Notes under the pieces: model-generated
Database searches by the model: none
What the model was told of the DNA's origin: nothing
What the model saw: only the letters and a program-made list of their open reading frames with translations
Translations under genes and position numbers: made by a program
DNA from: a virus
Lineage: Duplodnaviria; Heunggongvirae; Uroviricota; Caudoviricetes
Direction: 5' to 3' (one strand)
IMG/VR virus record: IMGVR_UViG_2698536570_000009
Location: 1-42,963 of that record
DNA: 42,963 nucleotides
Part shown: in pieces, positions 2,361 through 31,091 of the stretch
Layout of the letters: every line of letters begins with the position of its first letter
Position numbering within the stretch: position 1 is the first letter of the stretch

Positions 2361-2407
2361 TTTTACACCTCAGTTGGACGATGTTGAAATTTGCTGCTTT
2401 GAGGCCA

Positions 2408-2626
2408 TCACAGTCCCCATTGTTTGTTCTTAAGTTCGATCTCCTCCTGGCAACTTGCACAAGTCCGACAACCCTGAACAGCCAGGCGTCTTCGCTCATC
2501 TATCGGATCGCCACACTCACAACAATGAGTTGCGGATACAGTCTGGTAGTTCAGACGACGTATTTTTATTGCTGTATTGCGCTGTAATTCTTCGATTTCT
2601 GATGCTGAATCAATGATGTCTGCCAT
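2408..2626 (-). CDS. TraR/DksA-family C4 zinc-finger protein
   Basis: 72 aa; paired CxxC motifs 'CCECGDPI ... CRTCASCQ' near the C-terminus, typical of phage/plasmid TraR-like proteins. Confidence 0.75.
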   Translation of the reverse strand: MADIIDSASEIEELQRNTAIKIRRLNYQTVSATHCCECGDPIDERRRLAVQGCRTCASCQEEIELKNKQWGL

Positions 2627-2724
2627 CTTTCATTAATCCCTGAATTGTTGGTTAATACGCTTGAGGGTAAATGCGAATAATAAAAAAGGAGCCTGTAGCT
2701 CCCTGATGATTTTGCTTTTCATGT

Positions 2725-2940
2725 TCATCGTTCCTTAAAGACGCCGTTCAACATGCCGATCGCCAGGCTTAAATGAGTCGGTGTGAATCCCATCAGCGTT
2801 ACCGTTTCGCGGTGCTTCTTTAGTACGCTACGGCAAATGTCATCGACGTTTTTATTCGGAAACTGCTGTCTGGCTTTTTTGATTTCAGAATTAGCCTGAC
2901 GGGCAATGCTGCGAAGGGCGTTTTCTTGCTGAGGTGTCAT
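2725..2940 (-). CDS. hypothetical phage protein (71 aa, start MTPQQEN)
   Basis: ATG at 2938-2940 overlaps the TGA of the upstream small ORF (ATGA coupling); the ORF-track 93-aa version (start 3006) is an N-terminal extension lacking an SD. Confidence 0.5.
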   Translation of the reverse strand: MTPQQENALRSIARQANSEIKKARQQFPNKNVDDICRSVLKKHRETVTLMGFTPTHLSLAIGMLNGVFKER

Positions 2941-3020
2941 TGAACAAGCCCCATGTCGGCAAGCATAAGCACACAGAATATGAAGCCCGCTGCCAGAAAA
3001 ATGCATTCAGTGGCTGTCAT
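2937..3020 (-). CDS. small hydrophobic peptide (27 aa, MTATECIFLAAGFIFCVLMLADMGLVQ), single predicted TM helix
   Basis: Below the ORF-track cutoff; found by hand translation. Start ATG overlaps the stop of the upstream gene and its stop overlaps the start of the downstream gene (ATGA at both ends). Confidence 0.35.
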   Translation of the reverse strand: MTATECIFLAAGFIFCVLMLADMGLVQ

Positions 3021-3208
3021 ACCTGGTCTCTCTCATCTGCTTCTGCTTTCGCCACCATCATTTCCAGCTTTTGTGAAAGGGATGTGGCTAACGTATGAAA
3101 TTCTTCGTCTGTTTCTACTGGTATTGGCACAAACCTGACTCCAATTTGAGCAAGGCTATGTGCCATCTCAATACTCGTTCTTAACTCAACAGGAGATGCT
3201 TTGTGCAT
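3017..3208 (-). CDS. hypothetical phage protein (63 aa)
   Basis: Strong SD 'GGGAGG' 4 nt upstream of the ATG at 3208 (minus strand); acidic C-terminus. Confidence 0.5.
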   Translation of the reverse strand: MHKASPVELRTSIEMAHSLAQIGVRFVPIPVETDEEFHTLATSLSQKLEMMVAKAEADERDQV

Positions 3209-3369
3209 ACCGCCTCCCGTTTATTATTTATCTTCTCAGCCAGCCGCTGTGCTTTCAGTGGATTTCTGATAACAGAAAGGCCGGGAAATACCCAGCCTCG
3301 CTTTGTAACGGAGTAGACGAAAGTGATCGTGCCTACCCGGATATTATCGTGAGGATGCTTCATCGCCAT
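3181..3369 (-). CDS. hypothetical small protein (62 aa), uncertain
   Basis: ORF immediately downstream of exo on the same strand; overlaps the 3017..3208 ORF by 28 nt and the exo stop by 10 nt; no recognisable motif. Confidence 0.3.
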
Positions 3370-4046
3370 TGCTCCCCAAATGCAAAACCAATTTCAGCCA
3401 GTGCCTCGTCCATTTTTTCGATGAACTCCGGCACCATCTCGTCAAAACTCGCCATGTACTTTTCATCCCGCTCAACCACGACATAATGCAGGCCTTCACG
3501 CTTCATACGCGGGTCATAGTTGGCAAAGAACCAGGCGTCTTTTCCGGTTACCCACATGCTGTACTGCACCTGGGCCATGTACTCGGACTTAATGGCTTCG
3601 AAACCGCCGAGGCGGAATTTCATAAAGTCGCGGGAGGTGAACGGGCATTTCAATTCGAGGCCGAAATCGTTACTGCAAAGGCCGTCAGGGGAGCATGCAG
3701 TGCGCATGCTCTCGTCACGGAACAGGATCGGAGACTCCGTGACTTTCACGTCAGTAGTGAACTCGAAGAGGGTGCGGGCGTCTTCCTCGTACTGCTTGCC
3801 CCAGGCCAGAGCCTTGGCGTTAACCTCTGGCGCGACGCCGGTGCATACCTCGGCGAGTAGGGTGTGGAAGTAGGACATCTTCATGCCCGTCCATTTGGTG
3901 CCGGAGCGCGGCTTGGAAATGACGTTGTGAGCGTCAGAGGCAGTAATAACTCCGAGTCTCGCCCTTGCCCATGTCTCGCTGCCTTGCTCAATTTGTGCAA
4001 TTGGCCCAAATATTTGCTCAAATTTAATGAGCCACCTGTTATCCAT
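3360..4046 (-). CDS. exo: lambda-type exonuclease (Red-alpha / YqaJ-like)
   Basis: Near-identical blocks to recalled lambda Exo ('LRLGVITAS', '[32 protein letters not shown]', 'CSPDGLC', '[25 protein letters not shown]', C-terminal 'EIGF.FGEQWR'). Start taken at internal ATG 4044-4046 with SD 'AGGAGAGGA'; ORF-track start 4109 would overlap the upstream gene. Confidence 0.9.
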
Positions 4047-4659
4047 ATTTCCTCTCCTTTCGGCAGTTGGCTCTTGGCGGGATGCTAATCCCTCTATTGT
4101 TGTAGCCATGACACCATTTGTGGATGGTTGCTGATTTCACGCCAAAATGATTCGCCGCGGCTCCGGCGCTTTCAAAACGCAACCCATCAACAAACCAGTA
4201 AAACGATGTACTTCTGTTTTCCGCCTGCTTGGTAACCGTTGCCCATCTGCAATTGTCTTTTGAATACGGGCCTTCATTGTTCTTCCGATCTAGCTGATGC
4301 TTAGGCGTAGGAGGTGGCCCCATATCTTCAAGAAATAGCTCGAACGTCAGCCATCTTTCGCAGATACCGCGCTTACTGTATTTTTCGAAGTCTTTGTTGT
4401 TCGGGTTCGTGCAGCGGTTTTTCATTCCGCTCCAAATCCTGTAAACGCGGGTATTTCGCTGGCCGTGAGTGGCGTTTTTTCCTGCCATGCATCCGCAGCT
4501 GCTTATTGAACTGTTTTTAAGCTGATTTGCGGCTCTATAGCAGGAATTACCGCACACACAAAGGCATAGATACATCCTTCTACCTCTCAGCATGTGCGAG
4601 CATTCTTTGACGGTTAAGTGCCCATATTTTTCACCGGGCATAAGTGGATTGGCGTTCAT
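4039..4659 (-). CDS. HNH-like (homing-endonuclease-type) protein inserted between the recombinase and exo
   Basis: 206 aa; Cys/His-rich; block '[42 protein letters not shown]' resembles a block I recall from phage free-standing HNH endonucleases (family not verified). Start overlaps the recombinase stop (ATGA); ends 2 nt before exo start. Confidence 0.55.
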
Positions 4660-30731: not shown

Positions 30732-31091
30732 ATGGGCGTGGACTGGGATTCTCATCTTCTGAGTCCGCTGCATGATGTCTTTGGCGATGAGCACGAGTAC
30801 CGTCCACGTAACGGTACTCCTTTTACAATTAACGGGATTTTTGACCGTGGTTATGCGCAGGTTGCTGAAAACCTTGATGGCGATTCAGAAATTAACACCT
30901 CCAGCCCGATGTTGGGTGTGCGCGATGCTGAATTTCGCAAGCTGGGTAAATCGCAACCTGCTGTATCTGACCGGGTATTTATAAAGACGGTCGGTGGTCA
31001 CATCATCAATCAGTTATTTGTTGTGTCAAACGTCGAACCCGACAGTCATGGCGGATCTCGTCTTGTCCTCAATGTGGTAAAACCGCGATGA
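30732..31091 (+). CDS. FII-like head-tail connector protein
   Basis: 119 aa; C-terminal 'SHGGSRLVLNVVKPR' parallels recalled lambda FII 'GGSCHLWLGRGVPPA...'; ATG follows the FI stop. Confidence 0.55.
   Translation: MGVDWDSHLLSPLHDVFGDEHEYRPRNGTPFTINGIFDRGYAQVAENLDGDSEINTSSPMLGVRDAEFRKLGKSQPAVSDRVFIKTVGGHIINQLFVVSNVEPDSHGGSRLVLNVVKPR

Follow-up and report, generated by a model that had tools for sequence, protein, structure and literature searches.

What is encoded where orf63 meets orf61 in the exo-xis region that lambda-like phages carry? The question is raised by a stretch of viral DNA of 42,963 nucleotides (nt) (Caudoviricetes, IMG/VR record IMGVR_UViG_2698536570_000009), analyzed at its full length and called the window below, in which positions 2400-4110, on the minus strand, form the exo-xis segment of a lambda-like prophage. 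A reading made from the letters alone (the sequence-only reading) had pointed there to a 27-codon open reading frame (ORF), here termed the small ORF, that overlaps the genes on both of its sides and would encode a hydrophobic peptide. As a whole, our results are best explained if the small ORF genuinely encodes a protein and belongs to the leftward early (pL) operon of lambda-like coliphages, an interpretation that we regard as probable.

The small ORF reads ATG ACA GCC ... GTT CAA TGA, which translates as MTATECIFLAAGFIFCVLMLADMGLVQ, and the reading of the minus strand agrees with a mechanical list of ORFs. It is a discrete ATG-to-TGA frame, and its 27 codons place the product within the limit of 50 amino acids or fewer for small proteins. 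The earlier translation of this ORF and its description as bounded by ATGA overlaps both proved exact: the TGA of the upstream 63-amino-acid gene overlaps its ATG, and its own TGA overlaps the ATG of the downstream 71-amino-acid gene. The features of this chain, and the frames that overlap it, are as follows (the Prokaryotic Genome Annotation Pipeline is abbreviated PGAP).

2937-3020, minus strand: the 27-codon ORF and its stop, proposed gene for a small single-pass membrane peptide; equivalent to lambda J02459 complement(30925..31008)
3017-3208, minus strand: orf63 (DUF1382), upstream gene of the coupled chain, 63 amino acids, ending CAG GTA TGA; PGAP DUF1382, PF07131, phrog_292
2725-2940, minus strand: the 71-amino-acid gene (true orf61), with its ATG at 2940
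3017-3020, minus strand: ATGA overlap between the orf63 TGA (3017-3019) and the small-ORF ATG (3018-3020)
2937-2940, minus strand: ATGA overlap between the small-ORF TGA (2937-2939) and the ATG of the 71-amino-acid gene (2938-2940)
3028-3034, minus strand: GAGAGAG, a weak Shine-Dalgarno-like sequence within the 3′ end of orf63, at 7-13 nt upstream of the small-ORF ATG
2941-3006, minus strand: 22-codon extension giving the 93-amino-acid form of orf61 in the 933W and Phi24B annotations; overlaps the small ORF
2953-3138, plus strand: antisense 61-amino-acid ORF, a rival carrier of the selection signal, rejected

Population Variation and Selection

Over the 801 nt around the small ORF, the window matches a prophage of E. 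coli AW1.7 at 100% identity and lambda at 97%, and the locus has matches in 3,385 out of 5,426 complete genomes of E. coli as well as in about 180 phage records. Distant homologues of the ORF were not found, and population variation was therefore used instead. The family of the 71-amino-acid protein is restricted to E. coli at 70% identity or more and offers no distant homologues for a classical conservation test; its apparent divergent members are a copy disrupted by an insertion sequence (IS) (L086) and a decayed copy (L085). Matches to the 27-amino-acid peptide in a tblastn search of 50,697 phage records were limited to lambdoid phages of E. coli, including Shiga-toxin (Stx) phages, and a sensitive blastn search returned nothing further below 80% identity. 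A scan for orf63 across 185,579 species genomes yielded solely lambda DNA contaminating unrelated assemblies. The matches in question lie in representatives of Shewanella, Bradyrhizobium, Kitasatospora, Paenibacillus, Pseudomonas and other species (L331-L349), several of them on low-coverage contigs of about 48.4-48.5 kb, and they look like lambda control-DNA contamination and not real prophages.

With anchors placed outside the small ORF, 372 copies representing 146 haplotypes were collected from viral and metagenome contigs. The frame has 27 codons in 366 copies and 26 codons in four, so that 370 of the 372 are intact, and it is full length in 175 of the 176 matching phage records. One of the two broken copies belongs to a decayed prophage and the other is a stop-loss; neither has the pattern that had been named beforehand as telling against the frame, namely stops or frameshifts in it while the overlapping 93-amino-acid frame stays intact. 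The five major nucleotide alleles (67, 64, 44, 39 and 26 copies) differ at ORF positions 9, 12, 33, 72 and 81 and all encode the identical peptide, MTTTECIFLAAGFIFCVLMLADMGLVQ. The sole common amino-acid variant of the peptide is Thr3/Ala3.

The selection test was confined to the 76 nt that are exclusive to the small ORF, for which the expected synonymous fraction is 0.27, and each variant was scored once against a transition-weighted neutral expectation at four frequency thresholds. In the frame of the small ORF, synonymous and nonsynonymous variants numbered 16/16, 11/6, 7/2 and 5/1 as the threshold rose, and the corresponding ratios of nonsynonymous to synonymous change (dN/dS) were 0.36, 0.20, 0.11 and 0.08 (P = 0.0041, 0.0014, 0.0024 and 0.008, in the same order). 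The identical bases give dN/dS values of 1.35 to infinity when read in the 93-amino-acid frame and of 1.36-3.3 in the third sense frame. The small ORF is thus under purifying selection at the amino-acid level, and this selection is specific to its frame among the sense frames. The 71-amino-acid gene shows similar values (0.50-0.07). Taken with the near-complete integrity of the frame and with an ATGA that is kept across different upstream contexts (see below), these results bear out the earlier idea of a genuine hidden coding frame. An A-to-G change at position 2940, carried by 38 of the 372 copies (38-41, according to whether disrupted copies are included), converts the downstream ATGA to GTGA and the start of the 71-amino-acid gene to GTG; in the small ORF this is a synonymous change from CAA to CAG, and a start codon is kept.

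It could be argued that the signal belongs to the antisense ORF on the plus strand instead. Over the bases that it shares with the small ORF, this frame has a dN/dS of 0.16-0.51 (P = 0.0025-0.05), and it is open in most copies. Because its third codon positions are those of the small ORF, the substitution pattern alone cannot separate the two. However, the antisense ORF is unconstrained over the two-thirds of its length that overlap orf63 (dN/dS 0.74-0.81, not significant). Its length is 61 codons behind orf63; in prophages where a Dam methylase gene takes the place of orf63 it shrinks to 44 codons and its C-terminus is unrelated. In 15 copies (four haplotypes) its ATG has become ATA, a substitution that leaves the amino acid encoded by the small ORF unaltered. 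Moreover, it would oppose the pL transcript, and the nearest promoter-like match on the plus strand lies about 270 nt upstream of its ATG, such matches being no commoner than in shuffled sequences. We consider it extremely unlikely that the selection signal is carried by this antisense frame.

Another interpretation is that the stretch is conserved as noncoding regulatory sequence, either as the weak internal promoter p2 or as an mRNA structure controlling the 71-amino-acid gene. A published BPROM prediction, which scores low (0.59), puts a -35 element, ATGCAT, and a -10 element, TCATATTCT, inside the small ORF (PMC4195576), and a local hairpin can pair GGGG before the start of the 71-amino-acid gene with CCUC after it. 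Nevertheless, neither a promoter nor a hairpin explains the three-base periodicity of the substitutions. The fold is no better than those of shuffled sequences (z = +0.94), and the majority allele, with A at ORF position 72, breaks a proposed G-C pair. A consensus scan of the small ORF on the minus strand found no promoter or terminator, and a search of the ORF region against Rfam gave no match. Conservation of the stretch as a regulatory signal is therefore highly improbable.

Mosaic Junctions and Initiation Signals

We regard the mosaic junctions as the most telling of the sequence evidence for the small ORF. In prophages of the E. coli AR_452 type, which supply 73 of the 372 copies, a gene for a 185-amino-acid Dam methylase (Pfam E = 2e-56) replaces orf63. 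Alignment of these copies reveals unrelated sequence up to the ATG of the small ORF and near-identity from this ATG onward. The small ORF is therefore a separable module, bounded on its left side exactly by its start codon. The stop codon of the Dam gene overlaps the ATG as GCATGA, and a GGGAGG located 4 nt upstream of the small ORF can form a duplex of -10.3 kcal/mol with the anti-Shine-Dalgarno sequence, which is as strong as the site of orf63 itself. In the lambda context, the equivalent duplex for the small ORF is -5.6 kcal/mol at a spacing of 6, at about the 85th percentile of ATGs in the window. Whichever of three upstream 3′ ends precedes the small ORF (that of lambda-type orf63, of 933W-type orf63 or of the Dam methylase gene), an xxA-TGA overlap is preserved. 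The architectural part of the earlier coupling claim, with ATGA overlaps at both ends, is thus supported.

On its downstream side, the small ORF is followed by the 71-amino-acid gene in all 111 loci anchored on orf63, and it precedes this gene in 194 of the 199 testable copies anchored on the 71-amino-acid gene itself. Five of these 199 copies are, like phage SfI itself, of the SfI type, in which both orf63 and the small ORF are replaced by a 250-amino-acid gene that is annotated as queuine tRNA-ribosyltransferase and has no Pfam match. Similarity resumes at the ATG ACA of the 71-amino-acid gene, after a GAGG just upstream of it.

These arrangements are also what might be expected of a relay, in which the frame is translated only to carry ribosomes over the 76-nt gap to a weakly initiating 71-amino-acid gene and the peptide is degraded and functionless. 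The ATGA overlaps at both ends are retained in all contexts, the Shine-Dalgarno sequence of the 71-amino-acid gene is weak (-4.7 kcal/mol), and the small ORF is never seen without that gene. The SfI-type phages that lack the small ORF have GAGG just upstream of the 71-amino-acid start, and the adjacent 31-amino-acid ORF, which shows no constraint, looks like a passenger of this kind. However, a relay needs merely an open frame, whereas dN/dS in the small ORF is 0.08-0.36 and its five major alleles converge on one peptide. The extreme composition of that peptide, described in the next section, is likewise unexpected for a spacer. On balance, we judge a function limited to relaying ribosomes to be unlikely, and a gene whose product matters remains our preferred explanation.

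Composition of the Predicted Peptide

Hydrophobicity was measured as the Kyte-Doolittle grand average of hydropathy (GRAVY) and as the best 19-residue window, for which the classical transmembrane cut-off is 1.6. The peptide has a GRAVY of 1.71 and ranks third among 397 ORFs of 20-45 amino acids in the six frames of the window. Its best 19-residue window scores 2.33, above the cut-off, which by the Kyte-Doolittle measure alone indicates a hydrophobic segment long enough to span a membrane. T occupies 14 of the 27 second codon positions. When the ORF was subjected to mononucleotide shuffling, 31% of the shuffles stayed open, and 0.4% of the open ones were equally hydrophobic. Both the rank and the shuffles agree with the earlier assertion that such a composition is unlikely to arise by chance. 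The peptide had also been described as one uninterrupted hydrophobic helix. The hydrophobicity stands, but the sequence is interrupted: a polar MT(T/A)TE head (MTATE in the window) precedes a hydrophobic Cys6-Val26 segment that contains one Asp (Asp22), and the peptide has no Lys or Arg.

No family could be assigned to the peptide by comparison with Pfam, NCBIfam, PHROGs and PADLOC, which produced only a resemblance in composition to an MtrF helix, below the threshold. Two glycosyltransferase-like proteins of 428 amino acids (P0083 and P0084) that fell into its 90%-identity cluster are unrelated and reflect a clustering artefact.

The Extent of orf61

The 93-amino-acid frame (2725-3006) arises when the frame of the 71-amino-acid gene is prolonged upstream as far as an ATG at 3006, and it is in this form that orf61 of Phi24B and 933W has been described, with lambda Orf61 said to appear truncated and with residues 1-23 of the 93-amino-acid model inconsistent (PMC8614690). 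Should the longer protein be real, the small ORF would be a chance frame in its 5′ end. The long form appears in many records and in PHROG 303, virtually every copy keeps its frame open, AlphaFold predicts a short helix at residues 8-17, and the protein has been modelled in the literature (PMC8614690). Yet the extension has a dN/dS of at least 1.35, compared with 0.07-0.5 for the 71-amino-acid body, and the common polymorphisms within it are all nonsynonymous in the 93-amino-acid frame. Its start has no Shine-Dalgarno sequence at a usable distance, since the best duplex (-3.8 kcal/mol) lies at an unusable spacing of 13. The predicted local distance difference test (pLDDT) of the AlphaFold model is 41-55 over residues 1-20 and 73-91 over the body, in weak agreement with a noncoding extension, and the published models disagree on residues 1-23. 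In addition, PGAP starts the gene at the 71-amino-acid ATG, everything upstream of this ATG is unrelated in SfI-type phages, and overexpressed orf61 is insoluble (PMC6213356). It is very unlikely, then, that the 93-amino-acid form is the real protein. We judge that the true orf61 has 71 amino acids and that the 22-codon extension is an annotation artefact.

In lambda the gene has been altered further. Alignment with the window (L003 995-1150, lambda 30839..31024) places a run of seven A residues in lambda where other phages have six, inside the 71-amino-acid gene. Because of this extra A, the 61-amino-acid orf61 of lambda is a chimera of an out-of-frame upstream stretch and a frameshifted body. 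The lambda allele is present in 20 of the 372 copies, in which the 71-amino-acid gene stops after 29 codons and the small ORF is intact. In lambda, the annotated orf61 takes in the entire small ORF; in Phi24B and 933W it takes in 70 of the 84 nt.

This overlap has consequences for genetic studies. Deletion of orf61 from lambda or Phi24B raises lysogenization and host survival (PMC6213356), and in these mutants the whole annotated orf61 was replaced by an 87-nt scar (PMC6213356). Because the deletions replaced the whole annotated gene, the published mutants also lost the small ORF. Overexpression of orf61 led to insoluble aggregates (PMC6213356), a result that fits the expression of a mis-defined ORF.

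The identity of the 71-amino-acid protein is a separate matter. The PGAP name "cell division protein ZapA" rests on a sub-threshold match (17.2 bits to Pfam ZapA, for which the cut-off is 23.8), and a Foldseek search with the 93-amino-acid model against the PDB returned nothing below E = 1. Because all matches of the fold search lie above E = 1, the ZapA and homeodomain identities proposed for the 71- or 93-amino-acid protein are unsupported.

Genomic Neighborhood

The other genes of the segment are listed below.

3360-4109, minus strand: exo
3181-3369, minus strand: orf60a (DUF1317)
2633-2728, minus strand: 31-amino-acid ORF, which continues the ATGA chain; annotated in 434B and mEp332
2408-2626, minus strand: TraR/DksA-like orf73

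ATGA junctions occur in this operon between exo and orf60a, between orf63 and the small ORF, between the small ORF and the 71-amino-acid gene, and between the latter and the 31-amino-acid ORF. This last ORF shows no coding constraint (dN/dS 0.4-1.0, not significant), and a terminator-like hairpin (2704-2686) followed by a T run lies inside it. Its start at position 2728 is divided about 50:50 between ATGA and GTGA, a difference that alters no amino acid of the upstream ORF and leaves a valid start codon. A review of ribosome-profiling data nevertheless reports the 31-amino-acid product of lambda (orf2313) as translated, and the ORF may be translated without the peptide mattering.

For orf63, a nuclear magnetic resonance structure has been solved and phenotypes have been reported. 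In our sample the gene is weakly constrained (dN/dS 0.7-0.9), far more weakly than the small ORF or the 71-amino-acid gene. The slot upstream of the small ORF is a site of cassette exchange, occupied by orf63, by the Dam methylase gene or, with loss of the small ORF, by the 250-amino-acid gene (L351 593-1150; L352 423-1175; L095, L106, L142, L146 and L177). Elements of the IS3 family interrupt the 71-amino-acid gene (L086 1805-3017) and the 3′ end of orf63, the latter at 16 nt ahead of the small ORF (L350 259-1428), with the small ORF intact in both cases. An apparent breakpoint (H58), also 16 nt upstream of the small ORF, was considered as a further mosaic junction and ruled out; it corresponds to an IS3 insertion.

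Possible Function of the Peptide

If the small ORF is translated as its architecture suggests, ribosomes that finish the upstream gene (orf63, or the Dam methylase gene in about one-fifth of the copies) would restart at the overlapping ATG, helped by the Shine-Dalgarno sequence embedded in the 3′ end of that gene. They would then read the 27 codons, stop at the TGA that overlaps the next start, and be handed on to the 71-amino-acid gene with its weak site. The product would be a single-helix peptide that enters the inner membrane at an early stage of infection or induction. The exo-xis region is reported to inhibit host DNA replication, impair lysogenization and lower host survival (PMC3824215). 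The tight linkage of the small ORF to the 71-amino-acid gene suggests a partnership between their products, and our best guess is that the peptide would act as a small membrane-resident modulator, cooperating with the 71-amino-acid protein to produce the effects, pro-lytic and host-directed, that map to orf61 and exo-xis, and not as a free-standing toxin.

A bolder proposal is that the peptide, and not Orf61, is the active product behind the lambda orf61 phenotypes, and that, within the inner membrane, it affects a host factor feeding either the lysis-lysogeny decision or the host cell-cycle block ascribed to exo-xis. The residual phenotype of the lambda orf61 deletion could belong to the peptide because the 71-amino-acid gene of lambda is already broken, leaving a 29-amino-acid stub, the peptide is intact, and the deletions removed it. 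We offer this proposal tentatively and consider it rather unlikely to be correct. If it is correct, the peptide would be a new player in the best-studied genetic switch.

Several points weigh against a functional gene. The module is at least about 94% identical everywhere, and the selection test consequently rests on 9-32 variable sites, with P values of about 0.001-0.008 that apply before correction for six frames. In the six-frame control, one antisense frame gave a nearly equal signal of low dN/dS, and its exclusion needed other grounds. The peptide is devoid of the basic flanking residues that are usual for membrane helices. The SfI-type phages carry the 71-amino-acid gene without the peptide, which must therefore be dispensable for that gene. 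The exo-xis region is non-essential for plaque formation (PMC10695390), and in the review of lambda ribosome profiling mentioned above, just two extra ORFs, of 7 and 31 amino acids, are listed for the region. Finally, we infer the translation, membrane insertion and activity of the peptide from sequence.

Annotation and Implications

None of eight records that were opened (434B, E. coli AW1.7, lambda imm434, mEp332, Turner, Lambda_2E9, Lys19259Vzw and 933W) annotates the small ORF. In each of them the downstream gene either begins at the 71-amino-acid ATG, leaving a 76-nt hole, or is extended to 93 amino acids. The exact peptide is present in NCBI nr and UniProt as a hypothetical or uncharacterized protein (KHH38774.1 and A0A0A2SGE8_ECOLX), and the lambda-type variant of the peptide occurs on 981 contigs. 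The small ORF had been called invisible to a 60-amino-acid ORF cutoff; the phage and RefSeq records opened do leave it unannotated, but it is not wholly invisible, as these databases hold its product as a hypothetical protein. Searches of the full text and supplements of the searchable literature for the peptide string gave no match. The small ORF is thus most likely a conserved, though nearly always unannotated, gene of lambda-like phages.

The matter has weight because lambda serves as the reference phage and because its exo-xis region, which modulates the induction of Shiga-toxin prophages, is under active study. If the gene is real, the maps of lambda, 434, 933W, Phi24B and thousands of E. 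coli prophages miss a conserved early gene, and work on orf61 has used a wrong version of it: the 93-amino-acid construct would have a spurious Cys-rich N-terminus, and the lambda 61-amino-acid form would be a frameshift chimera. Use of the wrong version may be the reason why the protein was insoluble and the structure models were unstable. Every published orf61 deletion phenotype would be that of a double knock-out and would need re-assignment, and the peptide would be a simple candidate for a membrane-level input to the lysis-lysogeny decision. More generally, the locus illustrates cleanly that a micro-ORF whose homologues are all more than 94% identical can be validated from mosaic junctions and from polymorphism that is specific to its frame.

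Comparison with Known Systems

Lambda orf61 and the 93-amino-acid vb_24B_7c of Phi24B occupy the identical stretch of DNA, but the small ORF uses another reading frame and would make another product. Its 4-nt stop/start overlaps on both sides resemble the coupled ATGA chains of phage early operons. It differs from the downstream 31-amino-acid ORF (orf2313) in having constraint at the amino-acid level.

The type I toxins Hok, TisB, IbsC, ShoB and DinQ are short, very hydrophobic, single-helix peptides encoded on mobile elements, and the predicted peptide shares each of these properties. It is conceivable, then, that it is a membrane-damaging toxin similar to Hok, TisB, Ibs or ShoB, or a host-killing takeover factor. 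Consistent with this idea, its size and hydrophobicity resemble those of type I toxins, it would be expressed only upon prophage derepression, exo-xis genes lower host survival (PMC3824215), and deletion of orf61 raises it (PMC6213356). However, Pfam, NCBIfam, PHROGs and PADLOC hold no toxin, defence or small-protein family that matches the peptide. No opposite-strand promoter-like site was found within or next to the ORF and no antitoxin-like RNA in Rfam, and consensus scans of this kind can miss weak promoters. Unlike type I toxin genes, the small ORF is embedded and coupled in a long early operon and has neither an antisense RNA partner nor a promoter and tightly controlled leader of its own. 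Its product is free of basic residues, and its tight linkage to the 71-amino-acid gene suggests the role of a partner. A toxin of this type is accordingly a doubtful alternative, and a gene for a membrane-resident modulator seems the better description.

Another parallel is found among KdpF, AcrZ, MgtS, MgrB and YohP, which are small single-pass inner-membrane proteins of enterobacteria, and of which KdpF likewise lacks basic residues. The predicted peptide differs from this class in being phage-borne and confined to lambda-like coliphages, in having no sequence similarity to these proteins, and in being known here from sequence alone. As in that class, however, it has fewer than 50 residues and one predicted hydrophobic helix, it has been missed by gene callers, and its gene is the operon neighbor of a gene that it possibly serves.

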